Assembly: GCA_038734945.1 (NCBI GenBank)
Contig: JAVYOA010000003.1
Coordinates: 60,907 to 80,906 of the forward strand
Direction: 5' to 3'
Length of the DNA stretch: 20,000 nucleotides
Source: Fervidicoccaceae archaeon
Lineage (GTDB): Archaea; Thermoproteota; Thermoprotei_A; Sulfolobales; Fervidicoccaceae
The notes under the pieces are model-generated. The model worked only from the letters and a program-made list of their open reading frames with translations, was not told where the DNA came from and made no database searches. Shown here piece after piece: positions 1 to 10,448 of the stretch. The position numbers and the translations under genes were made by a program. Numbering within the stretch: position 1 is the first letter of the stretch; the number at the start of each line of letters is the position of its first letter.

Positions 1-1155
1 GACAAACAGCTCTTCCTTCACAATTCCAGCAGATAGAGGAGGAAGACCTGCAGCGCTTAGAGCCCCTATTAAGAATCCAGCTGTCTCAATTTTGAATCCC
101 TTTCCCCAAAGTCCCTTCAGCCTCGAGATATCCCTTGTGTGGAGGGAGTGCTCTACTCTTCCACTCACAAGGAATAAAAGTGCCTTGAAGAGAGCATGAT
201 TGAAGAGGTATAGTAGGGCAACGTAGAACTCCCCAAGACATATTGCTATGAACATGAGTGAGAGGGAACTAAGTGTGCTGAAGGCCAGGACTCTCTTTAT
301 ATCCATTGAAACCAAGCCAGCTAGCGAAGAGAGGTAAAGAGTAATTATAGATACTGCTAGAAGAAAAGCAACAGCTGCTTGATTTCCAAGGAAAATTGGA
401 TAGAATCTTAGCATGAGATATACTCCAGCTTTAACCATTGTGGCAGCATGGAGCAGTGCGCTTACTGTGGTGGGCCCTTCCATAGCATCGGGAAGCCATG
501 TGTGCAGCGGAAATTGAGCGGACTTCCCCATTGCCGCGAGAACCAGGAGTGGTAAAAAGGGAATAAGTTTCAATGAAAGCTGCTGAGAGGACAGAATCGC
601 TGGAATGCTGGATTCTCCGTAATATAGAGCAATAGAGGCAAATGCCATTAAACCAACGTCTCCAATTCTGGTCATGATCAGGGCCTTCATTCCAGCCCTC
701 CTGGCTTCTTTCCTTTCCCACCAATACGCTATTAAAAGCGCACTGCACACTCCAACAAGCTCCCAATTGAGGAGTAGATATATTATGTCGGAGGCTAGAA
801 CTAAGTTCAGCATTGCTCCAACGAAGAGAGAAATCAGAGAATAATACCTTGTAAAGTCCTTAGCATTCTTCATATAGTCAACACTGTAGATAGCGACTGC
901 ACTTCCAATGAGGCTCACAACAAGGGAGAAGAAGGCGGATAGCCTATCTAGATATAGCGATATATGTGGAAGAAATTGTATCTCTATTGGAAGATATGGC
1001 AGAGATATTAAATACATTGATATTGCTAGAGAAAGAATTGCTGAGGCAATTGCAAGCAGCTCAGCAATTGCTCTCCTTCTGAAAAGAAGGATAAGAGCAG
1101 AGGCTACAAAGCTGTTGAGGGAGAGGATTGCGAGAAGATTTGTTGTGGTTTCCAC
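1..1155 (-). CDS. NuoL/MrpA-like antiporter-type membrane subunit of the hydrogenase complex (3' end runs off the window)
   Basis: Not in the ORF track because it has no stop in the window; translated by hand. GTG at 1155 follows a GGGGTGA RBS, and the frame is open to position 1: METTTNLLAILSLN...LNWELVGVCSALLIAYW...RIGDVG...MGKSAQFPLHTWLPDAMEGPTTVSALLHAATMVKAGVYL...DIKRVLAFST...NHALFKALLFL. These are hallmark NuoL/ND5 motifs. Confidence 0.93.
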   Translation of the reverse strand, partial: METTTNLLAILSLNSFVASALILLFRRRAIAELLAIASAILSLAISMYLISLPYLPIEIQFLPHISLYLDRLSAFFSLVVSLIGSAVAIYSVDYMKNAKDFTRYYSLISLFVGAMLNLVLASDIIYLLLNWELVGVCSALLIAYWWERKEARRAGMKALIMTRIGDVGLMAFASIALYYGESSIPAILSSQQLSLKLIPFLPLLVLAAMGKSAQFPLHTWLPDAMEGPTTVSALLHAATMVKAGVYLMLRFYPIFLGNQAAVAFLLAVSIITLYLSSLAGLVSMDIKRVLAFSTLSSLSLMFIAICLGEFYVALLYLFNHALFKALLFLVSGRVEHSLHTRDISRLKGLWGKGFKIETAGFLIGALSAAGLPPLSAGIVKEELFV

Positions 1156-1162
1156 TTTTTCA

Positions 1163-1444
1163 TCACCCCGAGTGCTCTCTCAGTTCATCGAAATCCTCAA
1201 CCTTCCTGCTCTTAGAAAGGGATATGAGAAAGGATATGAGAACAGCTTCCGAAATTCCAGAAATGCTTGCTATTAGAACTATGGCAAATGAAGATGGACA
1301 TATGGAGGAAATAAGATAAACTGCTCCAATTGATGCTGAAAAGATTCCCAATATGAACCTAAAGAGGCTTCTATAGGTTAGAATAGCAGCTATGCCCGCA
1401 CTTATGAGGAGAGAAGATAAAATTGCTGTCAATACTGGTATCAT
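1163..1444 (-). CDS. NuoK-like small 3-TM membrane subunit
   Basis: 93 aa with three hydrophobic helices. ISGISEAVLISF resembles NuoK TM3 (AAAEAAIG). It lies between J-like and L-like genes, with an ATGA overlap and a GGAGGTG RBS. Confidence 0.72.
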   Translation of the reverse strand: MIPVLTAILSSLLISAGIAAILTYRSLFRFILGIFSASIGAVYLISSICPSSFAIVLIASISGISEAVLISFLISLSKSRKVEDFDELREHSG

Positions 1445-1896
1445 TTTCTAGCACCTCCAAGCAAAATTATGATTATTCCTATGGCTATCACTAGAGCAGT
1501 AGCAAGGGAAGTTATGTCTAGATAGCTTATCGGGAGAGTGGGGGAAAGAATGCATGAACCCCCTCTAGGACCCGCTATTTTAATTGCTGTTGAAAAGAGA
1601 ACAGAAACTAGGGCAGGTATAACTATCAGCTTCAATAGCTTGCCCGATGAGGCTATTACTGCTTCTTTTTTGCTGAGAAGAATGGTTGAGACATATGTGA
1701 GAGCAGTTAGTCCGCCGCTGTAAATGAGAACGACTGCTAATCCTGCCTTAGGATCCACTTCAGCAGCTATGGAGAGACCTATGAGCAGAGAGCCAAAAAG
1801 GATAGATACTATGCTGAGAGACCACTTCTCTGTAATCAATGAAAATATGATGACAGCGCTCCCTAGTATGGCCAGGGCTGAAGCGATAATGTCCAT
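1441..1896 (-). CDS. NuoJ-like membrane subunit
   Basis: About 151 aa with about 5 TM segments. VLIYSGG resembles the NuoJ TM3 motif (IIVYAGAI). Start placed at ATG 1896 after GGTGGG; the ORF track extends to 1908. Confidence 0.7.
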   Translation of the reverse strand: MDIIASALAILGSAVIIFSLITEKWSLSIVSILFGSLLIGLSIAAEVDPKAGLAVVLIYSGGLTALTYVSTILLSKKEAVIASSGKLLKLIVIPALVSVLFSTAIKIAGPRGGSCILSPTLPISYLDITSLATALVIAIGIIIILLGGARK

Positions 1897-1908
1897 CTTT
1901 CCCACCAC

Positions 1909-2265
1909 TCATTTTATTATGATTATTGGATCCACATTCTTCCTCATCTCTATGGCATTCTGCCTGCACACCTGGGCGCATAGACCACAATAGATGCACT
2001 TTGAATAATCGAAGCTTGGATTCTTGATTTCAACCTGTCTATTGCCAAGCATTCTCTTTCCTCCAGGTATCATGGTTATTGCCTGAGCTGGACAGGATAA
2101 TGCGCAGAGAGAACAACCAATGCACTTATCTGCTATCAGGACTGGTATGCCTCTTGAAACTTCTGTGAATGCTCTTTCAGTATCTTCTGATGGAAAAGTC
2201 TCCGGTCTTGAAAAAAAGCTCTCTATAGCTTCAAACACTGTCTTCACGCTTTTTTTCGCTACCAT
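1909..2265 (-). CDS. NuoI/HycF-like 2x[4Fe-4S] ferredoxin subunit
   Basis: Two cluster motifs, CIGCSLCALSCP and CIYCGLCAQVCR; located between the H-like and J-like genes. Confidence 0.92.
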   Translation of the reverse strand: MVAKKSVKTVFEAIESFFSRPETFPSEDTERAFTEVSRGIPVLIADKCIGCSLCALSCPAQAITMIPGGKRMLGNRQVEIKNPSFDYSKCIYCGLCAQVCRQNAIEMRKNVDPIIIIK

Positions 2266-3233
2266 AATCCCATCCTCCAGCTTGTTATTATTAGCGCCTG
2301 TATCACGAGCATTGATGCTAATGGAAGAGCAAGCCTCATGGGAAGGAGCATGCTCCTCACTCTCACAGCTACTCCCTCAATGAATGCTAGAAGTATAATT
2401 AGTGCGATAGACTTGAGAAGGAAGTATATTGGCCAAAGAATTGGTAAGCTTGAAACAAGGGGACCATAGCCTCCGCCAAGGAATAGGGACACTATAAGAA
2501 AAATGCTGAGGGTAAAGTCCATGTCGCCAGAGAGTCTTATGTAAGCCAGAGTCCTGCCTGAAAGCTCACTCATCCAACCTGCTGCAATTTCCTGCTTGGC
2601 GTGAGGCAAATCGAATGGAGGCTTCTCTAGCTTTGCAAGCAAGGAGATAACTGCTACAGCAAAACCTATAGGCTGATAAACAATGATAGGAACATTCTGT
2701 ACCTGGTACTGAACGATCTCACTAATCGTAGCTGATCCTACCTGCAAAAATATGATTGCAAAGCAAGACAAGAAGATCAGCTCATAGAGAGAGTACTGCA
2801 CTATTAACCTGCTTGTACCCACTAGTGTGAAGGGAGTCTTTATGGACATTCCCGCCATGAGATAGGAAAAAGATGTCAAGGCAAATATAACTAATATGAC
2901 CAACAGATCTCCGTTGAAGCTGAGAATAGAGCTCTTGGAAAAAAATGGTATGTGGAGAAAACCGTAGGTGAGAAGTGTAACTCCCACGAGTGGAGAGAGC
3001 CTGTACAGGAGTATATCTGTTCCCTCTGAAATTATCTCCCTCTTTCCCAATAGCTTCAGGAAATCAGCTACAGGCTGCAGGATGCCTCCAGGTCCAGTGA
3101 AGTACGGTCCAATTCTTTTCTGAACCCTAGCTATGGCTTTTCTCTCTACCCATTCAAAGAAAAAGCAGAGAAAGAGAAATACTATTCCTGCCCCAAGAGC
3201 TAGAATTGGTACTAGAAAAATGGAGTAGCTCAT
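2259..3233 (-). CDS. NuoH/HycD-like membrane anchor subunit
   Basis: ERKAIARVQKRIGP, GILQPVADFLKLLGK, PFDLP, FLGGG and about 8 TM segments. ATG at 3233 makes an ATGA overlap with the large-subunit stop; the ORF track start is 3242. Confidence 0.93.
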   Translation of the reverse strand: MSYSIFLVPILALGAGIVFLFLCFFFEWVERKAIARVQKRIGPYFTGPGGILQPVADFLKLLGKREIISEGTDILLYRLSPLVGVTLLTYGFLHIPFFSKSSILSFNGDLLVILVIFALTSFSYLMAGMSIKTPFTLVGTSRLIVQYSLYELIFLSCFAIIFLQVGSATISEIVQYQVQNVPIIVYQPIGFAVAVISLLAKLEKPPFDLPHAKQEIAAGWMSELSGRTLAYIRLSGDMDFTLSIFLIVSLFLGGGYGPLVSSLPILWPIYFLLKSIALIILLAFIEGVAVRVRSMLLPMRLALPLASMLVIQALIITSWRMGLW

Positions 3234-4894
3234 AGAGAACACCCAAGGCCAATTCCCTGAGGAGCTGCCCTAGGCAGTTTTACGATGAACGGCTCCTTTC
3301 TGTTAATGTAGACTATTGCTCTATCCTCACAGCTGAAGCAGGGATCTATCATTGTTAAAATTAGGGGGACGTCGGATAGCGTGTATCCTTTTATTGCCTC
3401 TGAAGCCAAAACGAGATTTGGCAGTGTTGGCGTTCTTATTTTAACTCTGTAGGGATTTCTCATTCCGACTTTGCCCCTAATATAATAGTAGAGTTCTCCC
3501 CTCGGTGGCTCAGTTCTTGCAAAAGCTTCACCATCCTTTGAAGTTCCCATGAAGAAAGCTGAAGGAACGGGATTTCCGGAGGGCATTTTCTCAACTAGCT
3601 GTTGGATTATTCCTATTGATTCGAAGGTCTCCTTTACTCTTACTTCAGCAATTGTGAGAACGTCTCCCCTATTTCCAGTTACAACATCAAACGAAACTTC
3701 TGGATAAGCGCCATATGGTTCAACTTTTCTTATATCATAGGGAACACCCGTGGCTCTGAGAACTGGGCCAACGGCTCCTGAAGAAATAGCTGTGTCTGCA
3801 TGATATATGCCTATGCCTCTTGTTCTTTCTTCCAGAGGACCGTATGACATGACCTCCTCAGTTATTCTTCTGAACTCCTTCTCAAATTCCGATATTTCTC
3901 TCTTCACGACCTTCAATTTTTCATCCGAAACATCGTATCTAACTCCTCCAATCGTAATGAAGGATTTATTGACCCTATTTCCCGCAATCATTTCTAAGAG
4001 CTTCATTATCCTCTCTCTGGCAGACCAGAGCCACATGAACATTGAGTCGAAACCTACCCAGTATCCGAGGAGTCCTATCCATAGAGAGTGGCTGTGTATC
4101 CTCTCAAGCTCGGCAACTAGCGTCCTCAAGAATTCTGCCTTTTTATTCGGAGATATCCCCAAGAGATTCTCAACAGCAAGAGTATACGTCCAAGAATGAT
4201 GAAAGCTGCAAATTCCGCATACTCTCTCAACCAGAAAGAGGGTTTGAAGGAAGCTCCTGGTCTCTGCAAGTTTCTCTATGCCCCTATGAACGTACCCTAT
4301 TCTTGGTCTTGCCTCCACAATCTTCTCTCCTTCGAGTGCTATGGCAAAGTGCTCAGGCTCCTTTAGAGCTGGATGATACGGGCCAAAAGGCAGTATTACT
4401 ATGCTCTCAACACTGTACCTGGAGGACCCAGTTATTGGTATAACCGATGAAGGTGGCTCCTGCATCTGAACTTCATTGAGGATCTGCATTAGTTGTTCAA
4501 GTGAAACTGTTTTGAGGAGAGGCGGTGGGGCACCTTGAGGATAGCTTTCCGGTAGGAGAAGCTTGGCATTTGGTAGAGGATGTCCAATGAAGCTGACTCC
4601 AAACATGTCTCTTATTTCCATCTCATATATATAGGCCCCTCTGATCTGAGAGCTTATGCTCTCGACAGCTGCTCCTTTTTCAGGAAGGGATACTAGCAGA
4701 TGTTTCATTTCTCCTTTCCAATTATCAAAGGAATAGATCAGTTCAATGCTGTTTGCCACATGGGTGGCGGTGATTCCTACTAAATGGGGATAGCTCGAGA
4801 TAACTGCTCTGACGGTTTCAGGAAGGGATTCCGGAAATACTGTTAAGACAGAAGAGCTGTCATTCCTTTTCAGGCTTACTGCTCCCATTCTCAT
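3230..4894 (-). CDS. Group 4 [NiFe]-hydrogenase large subunit fused to an N-terminal NuoC-like domain (HycE/HyfG-type architecture)
   Basis: The N-terminal part has YEMEIRDMFGVSFIGHP (NuoC-like). It is followed by FGPYHPALKEP, GYVHRGIEK, the L1 motif ERVCGIC, ELERIHSH, EPPRGE, YRVKIRTP and the L2 motif DPCFSCEDR, then a 29-aa C-terminal extension. The GGAGGTG RBS favours ATG 4894 or 4888 over the ORF-track start 4906. Confidence 0.93.
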   Translation of the reverse strand: MRMGAVSLKRNDSSSVLTVFPESLPETVRAVISSYPHLVGITATHVANSIELIYSFDNWKGEMKHLLVSLPEKGAAVESISSQIRGAYIYEMEIRDMFGVSFIGHPLPNAKLLLPESYPQGAPPPLLKTVSLEQLMQILNEVQMQEPPSSVIPITGSSRYSVESIVILPFGPYHPALKEPEHFAIALEGEKIVEARPRIGYVHRGIEKLAETRSFLQTLFLVERVCGICSFHHSWTYTLAVENLLGISPNKKAEFLRTLVAELERIHSHSLWIGLLGYWVGFDSMFMWLWSARERIMKLLEMIAGNRVNKSFITIGGVRYDVSDEKLKVVKREISEFEKEFRRITEEVMSYGPLEERTRGIGIYHADTAISSGAVGPVLRATGVPYDIRKVEPYGAYPEVSFDVVTGNRGDVLTIAEVRVKETFESIGIIQQLVEKMPSGNPVPSAFFMGTSKDGEAFARTEPPRGELYYYIRGKVGMRNPYRVKIRTPTLPNLVLASEAIKGYTLSDVPLILTMIDPCFSCEDRAIVYINRKEPFIVKLPRAAPQGIGLGCSL

Positions 4895-5324
4895 CTGCAC
4901 CTCCAAGCTGATTCTCGTAGAATTTTTTGATGATGGAATAGATCATTCTCGGATTTGGAGGACATCCTGGAATGCATATCACGTTTTTGAGAACCTTATC
5001 CACTCCTCCTATAACATTGTACCCTCCTCGGAAGACTCCTCCACTGCATGCACAAGTTCCAATAGCCAGAACAACCTTGGGTTCAGGAATTTGATCGTAT
5101 ATCATTCTCAGGGATCCAAGAGTCTGTCTCGTGACTGGACCGGTTACAACCAATATATCAGCGTGTTTTGGAGAGGAAGTTAGAATTGCTCCAAGCCTCT
5201 CAACATCGTACTTAGGTGTGAGAGATGCTACCACCTCAATATCACAGCCGTTGCATCCACCTGAGTTGAAATGGAAGAGCCAAGGGCTCCTCCTCACCAA
5301 CCGGAGTGAGCTATTTTTTTCCAA
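4860..5324 (-). CDS. [NiFe]-hydrogenase small subunit (NuoB/HycG-like, one [4Fe-4S] cluster)
   Basis: GGCNGCDIE, YDVERLG, SPKHADILVVTGPVT, PKVVLAIGTCACSGG and IPGCPP. The likely start is TTG 5324 after GGGGGAG; the ORF-track start 5384 lies deep inside the upstream gene. Confidence 0.93.
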   Translation of the reverse strand: MEKNSSLRLVRRSPWLFHFNSGGCNGCDIEVVASLTPKYDVERLGAILTSSPKHADILVVTGPVTRQTLGSLRMIYDQIPEPKVVLAIGTCACSGGVFRGGYNVIGGVDKVLKNVICIPGCPPNPRMIYSIIKKFYENQLGGADENGSSKPEKE

Positions 5325-5658
5325 TGTCTCTCTCCCCCAAGTAGACGAAGTATCCAAGCACTGTTGCGAACAGGGATGCTGCAAAGAGGAGAATAATCCA
5401 AGGAGAAATTTCTACGAAGAAAGTAGCTACGAGGAGCGACTCGACTGCGAGAAGTATGGATAGAAATATGATCATATCGCTCACATGAACAAAATTCTCT
5501 CCATTGAGAGAGATCCCCGCTGTATATGGCTGGGACTTTCTTCCCCCCTTTTCAACATTGAAGAGGGGAGACTTGCTGGTTAGAACATATATGGCTGCGA
5601 ATAATGCTCCTATCACCAGAACAGAAATTATTTCTAGCTCTATTTCAGCTAGCTCCAA
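5311..5658 (-). CDS. NuoA-like 3-TM membrane subunit, first gene of the operon
   Basis: 115 aa: TM1, then a loop KSQPYTAG (compare NuoA K..PYECG), then two TMs including ILLAVES (compare FDVE). A GGAGGT RBS lies at 5666-5671. Confidence 0.7.
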   Translation of the reverse strand: MELAEIELEIISVLVIGALFAAIYVLTSKSPLFNVEKGGRKSQPYTAGISLNGENFVHVSDMIIFLSILLAVESLLVATFFVEISPWIILLFAASLFATVLGYFVYLGERDIGKK

Positions 5659-5868: not shown

Positions 5869-6420
5869 TTGAAAGAGCTATCAGCAAAAGAGCTGGTTGC
5901 GTTACTGTTGGAAGAAATTGAGAATAAAAAGTCCACAATAGCATGCATAGGAAGCTCTCTCAGATCGGATGATGCCGCTGCATTGAAGCTCTGCGATATT
6001 TTAAGGAAGCGAACAAGCAGCGATGAAATATTAATATGTGATGGTGGACTGGAAAACTGCTTGGATAGGCTAATCGAAAAAAAGCCGAGTAGGCTAGTAA
6101 TATTGGACGCCGCGGCTGTTGATACAAATGAGGCAGGAAAAATTTTCCTCTTTGATATTGAAGAAATCTCAGAGGGAGCTGCTTGGTCCCACAGAATTCC
6201 AATTTCAATGGCGCTGAAAATTTTGAGTAATAGCATATTGCTGGACTCAGTGATCTTAATTGGAATTGGAGGAGAGCGCTTTGATATTGGAGAGGAATTA
6301 TCCCCTTCGGTTGAGAAGCTGATAAACTATGTGGATGAACTTCTTGGAATACGTATGAAGACAATGTTAGAGCTAGAGTTTTCTTCTTATGAGAGCAAAG
6401 ATAAGAATAGGGATGGCTGA
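5869..6420 (+). CDS. hycI: Hydrogenase maturation endopeptidase, HycI-like
   Basis: IACIGSSLRSDDAAA, GLEN, LVILDAA and SHRIP supply the Asp/Asp/His metal ligands of the HycI/HybD family. It is adjacent to a large subunit with a cleavable tail. Confidence 0.88.
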   Translation: MKELSAKELVALLLEEIENKKSTIACIGSSLRSDDAAALKLCDILRKRTSSDEILICDGGLENCLDRLIEKKPSRLVILDAAAVDTNEAGKIFLFDIEEISEGAAWSHRIPISMALKILSNSILLDSVILIGIGGERFDIGEELSPSVEKLINYVDELLGIRMKTMLELEFSSYESKDKNRDG

Positions 6421-7818
6421 AAAAATAAGGGAAATAATTGGGAGGGGAATTCCAATTATTTGCTGTGTAAATAAGGAAACCAGCGGATAGCCCTCCAGCT
6501 TTATTTGAATCGATCTCAGCAACAGAGGAATTTCTCCCAGTAGAAAGCTAATGATGGCAATATCTGCCCTTCTGAGCTCCGGAAGCTCGAGAGCTGCTAT
6601 TAGCTGTATTGCTGTTGGAAGAAGCAGAAGCGATGAGATAACTGAGAGCTCTACTATGAATGACAATCTCCAGATGGAGAAGAGGCCTGAGAAAAGGAGG
6701 GAGAGAGCAACGATAACCCTACTTAATTGTATCTCCATTCTTTCAGATATCCTTCTTGAGTTCCGAAGGAGAGATGAAATATTCGAGGATACAGTGATCG
6801 TTATTCCATTGATAGTAGAGATAGCTGCTGCAAAGATGCTGACGAGAATGAATGATGAAAGAATCTCGTTCCCATAACCTAGAAGGGCATATGTGACCTG
6901 ATCTCTGTTGCTTATAGAGGGGAAAAGTGAGGCAATTGTAAGAGACCTAGCTAATAGTCCTGTCAAGACCATGAAAGCCGTGTATAGAAGCCCATAGATG
7001 CCGAAAGCAGTGATGGCCTTTCTAAGATCTTTTTCGCTTCTGGGGGAAAAGAGCCTCTGTACGACCTGGGGGTTGGAAAGTGCGAAAAATATCCAGGGGA
7101 TGGTGTAGCTCAGAAAGGTTCCGATCGTCCAATACCCCTGTCCAACAGAGAGGGATCCAGAGCTTTCCAAGAGGGAAAAGGCTCCGTGTATGCCTATACT
7201 ATGATTTGTCAAACTCAAGACGAATAAGAAGAATGCTAATCCAGCAGAGAGCATCCATATCCCCTGCATAGCATCTGTGAAAGCTATGCTCCACATCCCA
7301 GCTATCATAGTCCAAACAAAGGAAATCATCACGGAAACGAGAACACCCAAAACATAGCTCATTCCAAGGAAGCTGAATGCTAGAGAAAGACCTTGTATTT
7401 GAGCTGAAAGATAGGGAATGAGGGCTATCATTTGAAATATTGAGATGAATAGAGCAAATTTTCTGGAGCCGAACATATGCTCATTCAGCTCCGAAACTGT
7501 AGATATCTTGGCATCTCTCGAGATTTTCCACAGTTTATTGGCATATAATGAGAGGAGAAACAATGTTGCTATTAGATAGGAAAGCTCATATCCCAGACTT
7601 CCTAATCCTGTGGAGTAGGAGAGGCCAACCAATCCGACTACCATGAAGGCGCTGTAAGTAGTTGATGCATATGCCATGAAACTTAGAAACCATCCAAGTC
7701 TTGTGTGTGCAGAGTAGAAATCCGTGGCACTCCTGGAAAGAAATCTCCTGGAAAAATATGCCAGCATCGATCCAAGCAATACGTAAGCAGAAAACATTAG
7801 AATAAATGAAGAGATCAA
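6373..7818 (-). CDS. Sodium:solute symporter family (SSF; PutP/PanF-like) transporter
   Basis: 481 aa with about 13 TM segments; motifs DFYSA, ASTTYSAFMVVGLVG, PYLSAQIQG, GMWSIAFTDAMQG, NPQVVQRLF and FAAAISTING. The substrate cannot be determined from sequence. Confidence 0.92.
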   Translation of the reverse strand: MISSFILMFSAYVLLGSMLAYFSRRFLSRSATDFYSAHTRLGWFLSFMAYASTTYSAFMVVGLVGLSYSTGLGSLGYELSYLIATLFLLSLYANKLWKISRDAKISTVSELNEHMFGSRKFALFISIFQMIALIPYLSAQIQGLSLAFSFLGMSYVLGVLVSVMISFVWTMIAGMWSIAFTDAMQGIWMLSAGLAFFLFVLSLTNHSIGIHGAFSLLESSGSLSVGQGYWTIGTFLSYTIPWIFFALSNPQVVQRLFSPRSEKDLRKAITAFGIYGLLYTAFMVLTGLLARSLTIASLFPSISNRDQVTYALLGYGNEILSSFILVSIFAAAISTINGITITVSSNISSLLRNSRRISERMEIQLSRVIVALSLLFSGLFSIWRLSFIVELSVISSLLLLPTAIQLIAALELPELRRADIAIISFLLGEIPLLLRSIQIKLEGYPLVSLFTQQIIGIPLPIISLIFSAIPILIFALIRRKL

Positions 7819-7823
7819 TATCT

Positions 7824-8066
7824 CTATTCCCTCCTAATTGAATAATTGACAATGATGAGAGCAATCAAGGAAAGAGAAATCCAGTAGAGAAGAAGAGAGA
7901 TGCCGCTTATTTTCAGAATAAAGGGAAGATAGACCAGAAACAAGATGATTAGGGCTGCTAAATATAAAGTGAGCTTGGAGTGCGGGGGGTGGGATTTGAA
8001 CCCACGCAGGCCTACGCCAACGGATCTTAAGTCCGCCCCCTTCGTCCAGCTCGGGCACCCCCGCAT
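7824..8066 (-). CDS. Small 2-TM membrane protein, probable symporter accessory subunit; the ORF reads through the tRNA-Leu gene
   Basis: The C-terminal ~51 aa (SKLTLYLAALIILFLVYLPFILKISGISLLLYWISLSLIALIIVNYSIRRE) form two TM helices and end 5 bp before the SSF start, which is the usual position of SSF partner genes. The only ATG is at 8066, overlapping tRNA position 1. The start is uncertain (alternative TTG at 7943). Confidence 0.6.
   Translation of the reverse strand: MRGCPSWTKGADLRSVGVGLRGFKSHPPHSKLTLYLAALIILFLVYLPFILKISGISLLLYWISLSLIALIIVNYSIRRE
7981..8064 (-). tRNA. tRNA-Leu (anticodon TAA), intronless, CCA not encoded
   Basis: GCGGGGG TG CCC GAGCTGGACGAA GGG G GCGGA CTTAAGA TCCGT TGGCGTAGGCCT GC GTGGG TTCAAAT CCCAC CCCCCGC A. 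It has a complete cloverleaf, a long variable arm, discriminator A and a canonical T-loop. Confidence 0.97.
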
Positions 8067-8068
8067 CT

Positions 8069-8740
8069 CTATCCCCCAATTGAATTCTCTTCAAATAAGT
8101 TTTTATCTTTCCAATTAATTTCTCTGACTATCCTTGCCGGCCTGTGACTTAATACTAGCACTTTGTCGCTTATTTCTCTGAGTTCTTCCAATTGATGAGA
8201 TACTATTATCATTCCAATTTTCAATCTGCTCCTCAGCGATATCAAGGTTTCATGCAAGGATCTTATTGAAGCCCTATCTATTCCTGTATAGGGCTCATCG
8301 AGAAGTAATATGTCTGGAGAAGTAATCAAGGATCTTGCCAGAGCAGCTTTTCTGGCTGTTCCACCGCTAACCTCTCTGACTCTTTTTTCAAGGTGCTCCT
8401 CTATACCAAACATATGAGCTAGTTCTTCCAGCCTCTTCCCTGCCTCACTTTCATTGATGCCTGAGAGCTTCGCTGCAAGTAGAATGTTCTTTTTGAGGTT
8501 GAACCAAGGAAGAAGCTGATTATCCTGTGGGGTATATCCAATCCTTCCATGTACCTCTACTTTTCCCGAATCTGGCTTGAGAATACCCACAATTATCTTG
8601 AGAAGAGTACTTTTACCCGCTCCATTTGGACCAACAAGACCTATTGCTTCTCCCTTCTTCAATGAAAAAGAGATCTCATCGATTACCAGCAGTCCATTGT
8701 AGGATTTTCTAATCCTGTCTATGACAACTAGCTCATCCAA
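8069..8740 (-). CDS. ABC transporter ATP-binding protein, NitT/TauT family
   Basis: Walker A GPNGAGKST, Q-loop YTPQDNQLLPW, signature VSGG, Walker B LLLDEP, H-loop VSH and the NitT/TauT-like tail VLSHRPARI. Start is TTG 8740 (after GAGGTG) or 8752. Confidence 0.93.
   Translation of the reverse strand: MDELVVIDRIRKSYNGLLVIDEISFSLKKGEAIGLVGPNGAGKSTLLKIIVGILKPDSGKVEVHGRIGYTPQDNQLLPWFNLKKNILLAAKLSGINESEAGKRLEELAHMFGIEEHLEKRVREVSGGTARKAALARSLITSPDILLLDEPYTGIDRASIRSLHETLISLRSRLKIGMIIVSHQLEELREISDKVLVLSHRPARIVREINWKDKNLFEENSIGG
8091..8107 (-). promoter_or_regulatory. Putative BRE-TATA promoter of tRNA-Leu, inside the ABC ATPase 3' end
   Basis: The minus strand reads GATAAAAAC-TTATTTGA: a purine-rich BRE-like run followed by a TATA-like box at -34 to -27 from tRNA G1, a spacing that fits an archaeal promoter with a short leader. 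Confidence 0.45.
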
Positions 8741-9456
8741 TTGATGAACCACCTCTCCAATTGCCTTAGGATGGCCAAATCAACCAATATCATCAGAGCT
8801 ATTAGTATGATGCTCCAAGCAAATACTCCTCCTTTGTATCCGAGATTGTAGCAGTAGACAAGCATGTACCCAACCCCTCCACTGCTACCAAGGGCTTCAG
8901 CAACTACACTGATTCTTAGAGAGTTCCCAATGGCGGCTCTGCTTCCGCTGGCCAAATATGGCAGAACTCCAGGAAATATGAAATATTCAATCAGCTGCCT
9001 TCTTCTAGCACCCATAGCTCTTGCCATATCTCCAAACTTTTCGACTACAACCTTTGCTCCATTGAGGCCCACAGTCAGCAATATAGGATAGGATGTGGCT
9101 GCTACAACTAGAATAGGAGGAAGCGAGCTTGTAAGCCCGAAGATCAAAAGGAAGATCAGAGTCCAGACGAGAGCAGAGACGCTTTGAATAAATGTGTTTA
9201 GGGCCTCAATGAGAGAGGCTGCATGATCGTTAATATAGTAAAGCGCTATTGAAATGAATGCTGCTGCAAGAGAAATTAGGAACCCGGCTATAGTATTCAG
9301 GAGAGTTCTGCCTATGTTGAATAGAAGGCTCCTAGTACCTATCTGCTCAAGGTAGCTCAGCACATCCTGTCCGCTGGGAACTGACATAGGGAACTCGTGA
9401 TACAGCAAGAACCAAAGGCTTAGAATGACAGCGGATAGATAAAACCATCCAAGCAT
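8728..9456 (-). CDS. ABC transporter permease, NitT/TauT family
   Basis: About 6 TM segments, EAA-like loop DMARAMGARRRQ, and FPGVLPYLASG...VVAEALGSSGGVGY. Confidence 0.92.
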   Translation of the reverse strand: MLGWFYLSAVILSLWFLLYHEFPMSVPSGQDVLSYLEQIGTRSLLFNIGRTLLNTIAGFLISLAAAFISIALYYINDHAASLIEALNTFIQSVSALVWTLIFLLIFGLTSSLPPILVVAATSYPILLTVGLNGAKVVVEKFGDMARAMGARRRQLIEYFIFPGVLPYLASGSRAAIGNSLRISVVAEALGSSGGVGYMLVYCYNLGYKGGVFAWSIILIALMILVDLAILRQLERWFINWMS

Positions 9457-9458
9457 GC

Positions 9459-10448
9459 TTAGCCTGATGCGTAGAATACCTGATCACCTATTGTTGAGGG
9501 ATCTTGTGCTAGATATCCTCCCTTCCAAGCCAGAGACCATGAGCTCCTTATTCCCTGAATCACGGTAGAGTTCAGAGTGTTGTCGAGGATAACAACCCTG
9601 CCGTACAAATATGCTGCTTCTTTTTGCGAAAGGCCATAGAGGCGAGCAAGCATCTGCTCTATTGATTGGGGATCGGTTTTCCATATATCAACAGCTGTCT
9701 TTCTCATGGAGAGAAAAGCGCTTAGCTTTTGCCCGTCGCTTGTGAAGTTTTTCGATGCAACCCATACAAGCATTACAGGAATTCCTGTGGAGTTGGACTG
9801 CTTCCAGAGATCCTGAAACGTACCAATTATTGTGAAGTTGTATCTCACCACGCCTATTGAGACAAACGGCTCCCAAACCACTGCAGCAGCTCCATCTCCT
9901 CTGGCTAGGGCATCCAAGATTGCTCCTGGGGGAGAATTAATACCTATTATATCTCCTCCTCCTTGAGGAGAATCAACCACGCTCAGATTGTATATGCTCT
10001 TCATATATGCCTTGAAAAGCATGTATGTTCCAGTGCTAAGCAGCGATATAACGTTTTTTCCCCTTAGCTGCTGGAATGATGAGATTGCAGATGTTCGAGA
10101 AAGAACTGCTTGGTTCTGCAGCATTTCGGGAGAAATTATTTGCACGGAAACTCCGCTCTGAATAAGCTTTGCTGCCATCTCAGAAGGAATGACTGCGACA
10201 TCGATGTCTCCTCTTTCGATTGCTGCCAATATGTCGGTAGTTTTTTCAAAGCGGTAGATCTCCAGCTGCACTCCCTGCTTAGAGCTCAAGTTGAAGTATT
10301 CCATTTCATCAAGCGTGCTAATGCCTCCTTGAAGAGTGCCGGCTCTAATTGTAATGATGTTACTTCCACCTCTCTCCAGGAACAATAAATATGAAGAAAG
10401 AATCAGTAGAGCAAGAACTACGAGTACTGCCAGCAACCATCTCCTCAA
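9459..10448 (-). CDS. ABC transporter substrate-binding protein, NitT/TauT (SsuA/THI5-like) family
   Basis: N-terminal membrane anchor, AIERGDIDVAV, QLRGKNV and ALARGDGAAAVVWEPF. GGGGTGA RBS; first gene of the SBP-permease-ATPase trio. Confidence 0.88.
   Translation of the reverse strand: MRRWLLAVLVVLALLILSSYLLFLERGGSNIITIRAGTLQGGISTLDEMEYFNLSSKQGVQLEIYRFEKTTDILAAIERGDIDVAVIPSEMAAKLIQSGVSVQIISPEMLQNQAVLSRTSAISSFQQLRGKNVISLLSTGTYMLFKAYMKSIYNLSVVDSPQGGGDIIGINSPPGAILDALARGDGAAAVVWEPFVSIGVVRYNFTIIGTFQDLWKQSNSTGIPVMLVWVASKNFTSDGQKLSAFLSMRKTAVDIWKTDPQSIEQMLARLYGLSQKEAAYLYGRVVILDNTLNSTVIQGIRSSWSLAWKGGYLAQDPSTIGDQVFYASG

Follow-up and report, generated by a model that had tools for sequence, protein, structure and literature searches.

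A transporter subunit gene without its own start codon behind a tRNA-Leu gene in a Fervidicoccaceae archaeon, a likely product of a lineage-specific junction

The 20,000-nt stretch of Fervidicoccaceae DNA analysed here (the window) carries on its minus strand an 80-codon open reading frame (ORF; 7824..8066) that crosses a whole tRNA-Leu(UAA) gene and ends directly upstream of a sodium:solute symporter (SSS) family permease gene. The part of the ORF behind the tRNA belongs to a family of small two-helix membrane proteins, whose genes precede this symporter in related archaea and have start codons of their own. With moderate confidence, we interpret this arrangement as the outcome of a junction that arose in this lineage and cost the subunit gene its start; the ORF running through the tRNA would then be a by-product, and the cassette of subunit and symporter would be expressed by read-through and tRNA excision. 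A junction at a tRNA 3′ end would here have severed a gene cassette precisely at its start codon, and the case poses a puzzle, namely, that an apparently intact, probably needed subunit lacks its own start.

The tRNA gene and the ORF across it

Upstream of the ORF lies a minus-strand SBP-permease-ATPase operon of an ABC transporter, which consists of an NMT1-like binding protein (9459-10448) and a permease (8728-9456), both identified by Pfam, and an ATPase as the last gene (8069..8752), identified by a match to PF00005 and by synteny with two related genomes, G001 and G004. Downstream lies the symporter gene (6373..7818, minus strand), which encodes a protein of 481 aa from a TTG start preceded by a Shine-Dalgarno (SD) sequence, GGAGG, at 7834-7830 (-11.0 kcal/mol). 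The symporter belongs to PF00474 (2.5e-22; 79.8 bits, with a gathering score of 22.8, over residues 34-374). It is full length and, of 97 positions with a conservation of 90% or more across 27 relatives, keeps 83, a retention below that of most relatives (95-100%) but similar to that of four other divergent ones (79-90%). Convergent with the symporter is a gene for a HycI-type hydrogenase maturation protease (5869..6420, plus strand; PF01750), and the two genes share 48 nt at their 3′ ends. Also on the HycI side, facing the symporter, is a group-4-type [NiFe] hydrogenase cluster.

The tRNA gene was called by ARAGORN at 7980..8064 (minus strand) as a tRNA-Leu with anticodon TAA and a long variable arm. 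The Rfam covariance model RF00005 matches 7981..8064 over model positions 1-71 of 71, with 56.2 bits and a gathering score of 29, so that the score and the anticodon call together place it in the tRNA family. The gene does not encode the CCA end, has a GC content of 68%, and is the only tRNA gene with a TAA anticodon among the 32 found by ARAGORN in this genome.

The sequence and the ORF list place the ATG of the 80-codon ORF at 8066-8064, where G8064 is also the first base of the tRNA, and its stop codon, TAG, at 7826-7824, leaving a gap of 5 nt before the symporter TTG at 7818. On the other side, the stop codon of the ATPase gene (TAG 8071-8069) lies 2 nt ahead of the ATG and 4 nt ahead of the tRNA. 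The tRNA 3′ end falls in codon 29, and the next codon, the first to lie wholly outside the tRNA, opens the subunit-homologous part. From there on, the frame contains neither ATG nor GTG; the first canonical start there is a TTG (7941..7943, minus strand; codon 42) that lies within the first predicted transmembrane helix and has no SD sequence (-1.9 kcal/mol). Leucine codons TTA occur at codons 13, 34 and 36. The sequence statements made in an earlier note on this DNA all proved correct on rechecking. A collection of proteins of 44-140 aa contains neither the 80-aa protein nor a relative of it, and the ORF was not called by gene callers. The minimum-energy fold of the RNA from 7930-8085 is not the cloverleaf, with an uninformative z of -0.99.

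A family of two-helix subunits upstream of the symporter

The symporter is present in 28 of the 41 related genomes that we searched. In all 22 loci compared (L002-L023; symporter identity 32-40%), it is preceded by a small hydrophobic ORF of about 55-70 codons that ends between -18 and +8 nt relative to the symporter start; two loci with distant paralogs, L024 and L029, were excluded from this set. In the alignment of these small proteins (A1), the shared features are a short basic N-terminus, a Tyr 5-7 residues after the Met, helix 1, a (V/L)P(Y/F) motif, a short Gly-containing loop, and helix 2 with (F/Y)W. The ORF in the window shows the same layout in codons 30-80 (7827..7979, minus strand), with helix 1 at about codons 32-49, followed by LPF and then by helix 2 with YW.

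A profile built from 18 relatives and searched against the six-frame translation of the genome gave a single match below E 0.1 among 22,208 ORFs, and this match was the ORF across the tRNA (E 8.8e-6, 25.4 bits; profile positions 9-56 aligned to codons 33-80). Together with its position directly upstream of the symporter, this match assigns the ORF to the family. No second copy of the subunit was detected elsewhere in the genome by the same six-frame search. For the 19 sequences in A1, Pfam listed neither DUF4212 nor DUF485 nor DUF3311 at E <= 1, comparison of the small proteins with all NCBIfam and Pfam models yielded chance-level matches only, and the best score in an ESM Atlas look-up of residues 30-80, 0.81, was at noise level. 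As judged from these comparisons, the small subunit is an unnamed family of this archaeal order, which we define here.

Furthermore, we modelled codons 30-80 in complex with the symporter of the same genome. The model scored 0.89, compared with 0.01 for the best of three controls; the mark applied is passed by 116 of 157 solved complexes and by 2 of 215 mismatched pairs, counts that are only rough here because custom alignments were used. The contacts agreed at 100% across three runs, and the partner pLDDT was 89. Helix 1 is thus predicted to contact the symporter, and six of the modelled contact residues (31, 34, 35, 37, 38 and 41) lie upstream of TTG 7943. The frame is intact over helix 1, including Y35, which matches the Tyr found 5-7 residues after the Met in the relatives. 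The proposal that the downstream part encodes a transporter accessory subunit is therefore supported both by the two-helix ORF ahead of the symporter in 22 of 22 loci and by the complex model.

Start codons in the relatives

The relatives differ from the window in where their subunit genes begin. An ATG, GTG or TTG lies 16-24 codons ahead of the conserved Pro in each of the 18 relatives that could be scored. The remaining 4 of the 22 loci (L008, L013, L021 and L022) were not matched by the scoring pattern; a looser pattern picked an ATG 20-26 codons before a Pro in L013, L021 and L022, and the wrong frame in L008. The only canonical candidates in the window are ATG 8066, at 47 codons from the Pro, and TTG 7943, at 6 codons, so that the interval in which the family has its starts holds none here. 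Whether anchored on the profile, on the MAFFT alignment or on the conserved Tyr, the Met of the relatives aligns with residues 24-31 of the ORF, that is, with the 3′ end of the tRNA. This agrees with the observation, made from the window alone, that removal of the tRNA-derived codons leaves a normal-looking N-terminus. The same comparison went against the idea that the ATG at the tRNA edge, the frame and the spacing might be conserved, given that none of 30 related loci has a tRNA gene in this position and that all 18 scored relatives have starts of their own.

A junction peculiar to one lineage

These 30 loci, counted without paralogs, comprise the 22 loci above and 8 further ones from 325 genomes of the order; none has a tRNA gene within 600 nt (<=600 nt) upstream of the symporter, and such a gene is likewise absent at the 2 distant paralog loci. 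In contrast, the upstream side of the junction is shared with relatives. A tRNA-Leu(UAA) gene follows the orthologous ABC permease and ATPase genes also in G001, a genome of the same genus in which this tRNA is 99% identical, and in G004, a genome of the same family, so that this side is ancestral. The spacer between the ATPase and tRNA genes is about 220 nt in G001 and at most 65 nt in G004. The 3′ flanks of the tRNA in G001 and G004 both carry CTTTTTGCTATGTA, where the window has subunit codons instead.

The cassette itself occupies a different site in each of three genomes of the genus. In G002, it is flanked by orthologs of C2:17799 and C2:17941, which in the present genome are separated by 141 nt, and in G001, it adjoins orthologs of C9:126849-131181. 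Pairwise identity among the three cassettes of the genus is only 36-46%, and the symporter in the window is at most 40% identical to any other. The symporter occurs in 146 of the 325 genomes of the order, none with more than 47% identity, and neither genomes nor metagenome contigs yielded a closer relative by which the junction could be dated.

A TATA-like box and, between it and the small ORF, a 12-bp palindrome are found in 21 of the 30 relatives; the palindrome reads GAACAnnTGTTC or, in one group, AAACAATTGTTT. Upstream of the subunit in the window, neither form of the palindrome is present. Because the arrangement is peculiar to one lineage and the palindrome is absent, the simplest reading of the sequence comparison is that the cassette became attached to the tRNA within this lineage, losing its start codon and control region. 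The tails of the flanking proteins that extend beyond the part aligned with relatives, about 11 aa in the ATPase and about 29 aa in HycI, fit with a loss of intergenic DNA.

We also considered an integrated element at the tRNA gene, for which the 20-kb window gave no support. No integrase was found among the ORFs scanned, nor was a far-end direct repeat, as a search of the window for a second copy of the 3′ 22 nt of the tRNA, with up to 3 mismatches (<=3), gave none. The two contig ends of G001, one 47 nt behind the tRNA and the other behind HycI, do not overlap.

Openness of the frame across tRNA genes

That the frame crosses the tRNA without a stop codon had been regarded as notable. The frame is indeed open, but at the level expected by chance. 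Across the 32 tRNA genes of this genome, 47 of 96 sense frames are free of stops, and a start-initiated ORF spans the whole tRNA in 22 of 96 frames and at 17 of the 32 genes, with lengths of up to 112 codons; in the tRNA-Leu discussed here, two of the three frames are stop-free. Of 29 homologous tRNA-Leu genes in relatives, which have no such ORF behind them, 24 are likewise stop-free in this frame (20 of 25 with anticodon TAA and 4 of 4 with CAA). Start-like triplets are common within the last 8 nt before the first tRNA base in this genome, and in G001, an ATG occurs at -4, but in the frame in which the anticodon TAA is read as a stop codon. Thus, openness appears to be a property of the tRNA sequence, and a nearby start is common. 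More generally, stop-free frames over GC-rich tRNAs are common (17/32 here), so that finding a tRNA in frame says little in favour of dual coding.

The three TTA codons, cognate for this tRNA, had been put forward as a further signal. TTA accounts for 7% of the leucine codons of the genome and for 3 of 16 in the ORF, a difference short of significance, and the anticodon region of the tRNA itself supplies one of the three; enrichment in TTA was therefore dropped as a signal. The suggestion that a single RNA, either translated or processed into tRNA, regulates the transporter fared no better: the orthologs have their own starts (18 of 18 scored), a nearby tRNA is missing from 30 of 30 loci, and the open frame is at chance level. 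Conservation of the frame and start, which along with translation across the tRNA would mark a dual-use RNA, is seen in 0 of 30 relatives. Nothing at the locus links to leucine, and a tie to leucine status finds no footing there.

Translation and transcription signals

An SD-like GGGGG (8073..8077, minus strand) is located 7-11 nt before ATG 8066 and also forms the last Gly-Gly codons of the ATPase. Its duplex with the 3′ end of the genome's own 16S rRNA reaches -8.4 kcal/mol; of 5000 random positions, 5.4% are this strong, and 68% of 440 ORF starts have a weaker duplex. This value is moderately unusual, being attained at 1 of the 32 tRNA genes of the genome, namely, tRNA-Leu(UAA), and at 2 of the 29 tRNA-Leu genes of relatives. 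SD sites are widely used in this genome and peak 11-14 nt before the ATG.

A TATA-like sequence, ACTTATTT (8093..8100, minus strand), lies at -36..-29 from the first tRNA base, in the tail codons of the ATPase. It is probably the tRNA promoter, as the same motif is found ahead of tRNA-Val(cac) at a nearly equal spacing (-37..-30). It begins 32-34 nt before ATG 8066; in genes of this genome with weak SD sequences, TATA-like sequences peak at -34..-29, consistent with leaderless mRNAs. Another TATA-like sequence, TTTATATT (7961..7968, minus strand), lies within helix 1 codons (T-L-Y-L), with its first base 25 nt before TTG 7943. Following the tRNA, the first run of four T residues comes at 186 nt and the first run of five at 224 nt, so that no T-run terminator separates the tRNA from the cassette and read-through is plausible. 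In the approximately 3/100 of metatranscriptome run X21 that was read, 0 reads fell on 7500-8400, and RNA run X17 contained only 4% of the words.

Alternative explanations

A point against regarding the ORF as a by-product is that the subunit looks alive, where a long-dead gene would be expected to decay. Taken together, the intact helix 1, the predicted contact, the single copy and the intact symporter suggest a recent junction or else continued production of the protein; translation of both helices would have to begin ahead of helix 1, where ATG 8066 is the sole canonical start. Translation from AUG 8066 on part of the transcripts, before RNase P and RNase Z cut them, would give a working 80-aa subunit with a basic, tRNA-encoded N-terminal extension of 29 residues, and the borrowed start would have let the beheaded gene survive. 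Ribosomes could reach this codon without a leader on the primary tRNA transcript (leader of 1-4 nt), the TATA-like box being at a distance that fits the leaderless peak, or by re-starting 2 nt after the ATPase stop codon on read-through operon mRNA, which carries the SD-like site at the usual spacing. The joint chance of a start-initiated open frame (22/96) and such an SD (about 0.05-0.07) is about 0.01-0.02, a figure obtained for features that were selected after being seen. Against this stand the absence of the arrangement from all 30 relatives, the pairing of the G of the AUG in the acceptor stem of a tRNA with 68% GC, and the ordinariness of start-like triplets just ahead of tRNA genes here. 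Cleavage by RNase P at the tRNA 5′ end, as in tRNA maturation, would split the AUG, and processing must be efficient for the sole UUA decoder found. In the portion of the literature covered by a full-text search, no earlier case came up in which a working tRNA gene is translated. This is the chief rival, but on balance we regard production of the subunit from AUG 8066 as rather unlikely.

Other starts seem to us less probable still. A leaderless transcript driven by the box at 7968-7961, which would also carry the symporter, could yield a shortened product of 39 aa from TTG 7943, the first canonical start after the tRNA; TTTATATT is preceded by AAGCT, as in the AAAGCTTATAT promoters of L003, L004 and L021, and some genes here with weak SD sequences show the leaderless-type TATA-like peak. 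However, the box is 25 nt ahead of the TTG, compared with the peak at -34..-29, which predicts an RNA start about 5 nt behind the TTG; the TTG has no SD sequence, the product would be without most of helix 1, including the six modelled contact residues, and the starts of the relatives are always at least 16 codons from the conserved Pro. We consider this product improbable. Initiation at a non-canonical codon between 7979 and 7944 (AAG 7976, or ATC 7949/7946) on an RNA released by RNase Z would restore a full two-helix protein with an N-terminus resembling that of the relatives, and near-cognate codons do exist in this interval. Yet the sequence ahead is the C-rich 3′ acceptor strand, with no SD-like sequence, the genome relies on SD or leaderless ATG, GTG and TTG starts, and the RNase Z cut at 7981/7980 would create no 5′-terminal start codon, which makes this route very improbable. 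Finally, the junction could be a false join made within one of the similar tRNA-Leu genes during assembly. The Logan contigs do break inside the tRNA, and the pieces with the subunit flank reach 26-27 nt into it, short of the 31 nt of the bridging rule (<31 nt). However, two runs from two studies join the same flank to the tRNA 3′ end, depths are equal on both sides (171.9/173.9 in X1 and 8.26/8.0 in X4), and none of the five tRNA-Leu genes stands at a contig end, each having flanks of its own. The contigs of two DNA runs carry 7500-8005/8006 with three differences, all in the symporter (F47F, H38H and T32M). Even a false join would leave the subunit gene abutting the 3′ end of some tRNA-Leu gene, and we give an assembly error hardly any weight.

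Proposed origin of the locus

We therefore return to a lineage-specific junction as the explanation that we favour. In the line leading to this hot-spring archaeon, a two-gene cassette of the two-helix subunit and the SSS permease would have landed immediately downstream of the only tRNA-Leu(UAA) gene, in a rearrangement or insertion with breakpoints at the tRNA 3′ end on one side and at the subunit start codon on the other. This junction would have taken away the promoter region of the cassette, the palindromic operator-like site, the SD sequence and the start codon. The beheaded frame would then extend, by coincidence, through the GC-rich tRNA to an ATG at its 5′ edge. The tRNA is presumably made normally from the TATA-like box at -36..-29 and matured by RNase P and RNase Z. 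RNA for the cassette would most likely come from read-through from the tRNA promoter or the ABC-operon promoter, or else from the TATA-like box in helix 1, and the symporter would be translated from its own strong SD sequence. The subunit gene would be a recent remnant that is untranslated, or translated in a shortened form or in small amounts. On this interpretation, there would be no regulatory link of the cassette to tRNA maturation or leucine.

If, on the other hand, the subunit is made from the ATG upstream of the tRNA, the locus would be a rare natural case of translation through an active tRNA gene. Ribosomes would traverse the tRNA-Leu sequence before it folds, and each transcript would become either tRNA or mRNA, with ribosomes competing with RNase P and RNase Z for one RNA. 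Besides the junction, the analysis has yielded, as by-products, an unnamed family of two-helix SSS subunits, together with a palindrome conserved ahead of its genes.

Comparison with known systems

The 3′ ends of tRNA genes are targets of integrases and hotspots of rearrangement. The present locus resembles such sites in that the breakpoint coincides exactly with the tRNA 3′ end and that the cassette is placed differently in each genome of the genus; unlike at integrase-targeted sites, the ORFs scanned in the 20-kb window include no integrase, and the 3′ 22 nt of the tRNA are not repeated in it.

Co-transcripts of tRNA and mRNA that are cut by RNase P and RNase Z are found in mitochondria, where tRNAs punctuate the transcript, and in bacterial tRNA-tufB operons. 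As in these systems, a tRNA lies beside a protein gene with no terminator between them, and its excision from what is probably a common transcript would define mRNA ends. The mRNAs released in the known systems carry a start codon of their own, whereas here the RNA set free by RNase Z would contain no canonical start ahead of helix 1, the only such start lying beyond the tRNA.

For small proteins encoded next to SSS permeases, the fitness data of one study (10.1101/072470) point to a need for DUF4212 and DUF485 by their permeases, and an account of the rpuS/R locus (PMC9100948) describes a DUF3311 gene that adjoins the SSS family gene NGR_RS10965 and is co-regulated with it. The subunit family of this archaeal order differs from DUF4212 (PF13937), DUF485/YjcH (PF04341) and DUF3311 in matching none of those models, but it shares with them the same design, a two-helix membrane protein of about 55-65 aa encoded directly 5′ of an SSS permease.

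A small-subunit family and its candidate regulatory sites

The small two-helix proteins encoded 5' of sodium/solute symporter (SSS) family symporters in this archaeal order are one family, for which we found no Pfam or NCBIfam model; this family includes the homologous part encoded in the window (7827-7979, minus strand) and its counterparts in 22 related symporter loci (L002-L023). The modeled complex of the small protein with the symporter passed with a score of 0.89, against 0.01 for the best control.

A 12-bp palindrome, GAACAnnTGTTC, is present in 21 of the 30 related loci (L002-L023 and eight further loci of the order, L076-L083), with the variant AAACAATTGTTT in one group of them. In these relatives, the palindrome follows a TATA-like box and precedes the small-ORF start, ~190-260 nt 5' of the symporter start; a regulator of the cassette formed by the two genes probably binds there. 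The palindrome is absent at the small ORF of the window (7824-8066), and the pattern CGAAC-N4-GTTCG has one site in the genome, at C2:376816.

Within the helix 1 codons of the small ORF, we observed the stretch AAGCTCACTTTATATTT (7958-7978, minus strand), which contains two of the rare TTA codons (7% of Leu codons) and is similar to the AAAGCTTATAT promoter boxes that precede the cassette in L003, L004 and L021. The stretch could be a working internal promoter for the symporter.

In two DNA runs, G>A differences were found at 7678, 7705 and 7724, with the respective effects F47F, H38H and T32M in the symporter; no differences were seen in the small ORF and the junction in the same runs.

Surroundings of the tRNA and the cassette

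The ABC ATPase and HycI genes, on either side of the tRNA and the cassette, both extend beyond the part that aligns with relatives. The ATPase tail of ~11 aa (8069-8104) contains the TATA-like box of the tRNA and ends 4 nt before the tRNA itself, and the HycI tail of ~29 aa lies on the strand opposite to the symporter and overlaps its last 16 codons (6373-6420). The HycI protease gene (5869-6420, plus strand) comes after an energy-converting [NiFe] hydrogenase-like cluster (1-5658, minus strand), which comprises an antiporter-like subunit, a NuoH-like protein, a fused 30-kDa/49-kDa large subunit, a NuoB-like small subunit and a 4Fe-4S protein.

In the two other genomes of the genus, contigs G001:C59, G001:C79 and G002:C5 (L032, L067 and L068) all end at this same place, 47 nt past tRNA-Leu(UAA) and just past or within the HycI homolog; thus, across the genus, the tRNA-to-HycI stretch may vary or be difficult to assemble. 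Neither an ABC ATPase ortholog (best match, 34% identity) nor a tRNA-Leu match above 88% identity was found in the G002 assembly.

ORFs across tRNA genes

Genome-wide, start-initiated sense ORFs of 30-112 codons span 17 of the 32 tRNA genes, many of which carry NTGA or ATG within the 8 nt immediately 5' of base 1. Such ORFs are a general hazard when genes or dual coding are called at tRNAs.
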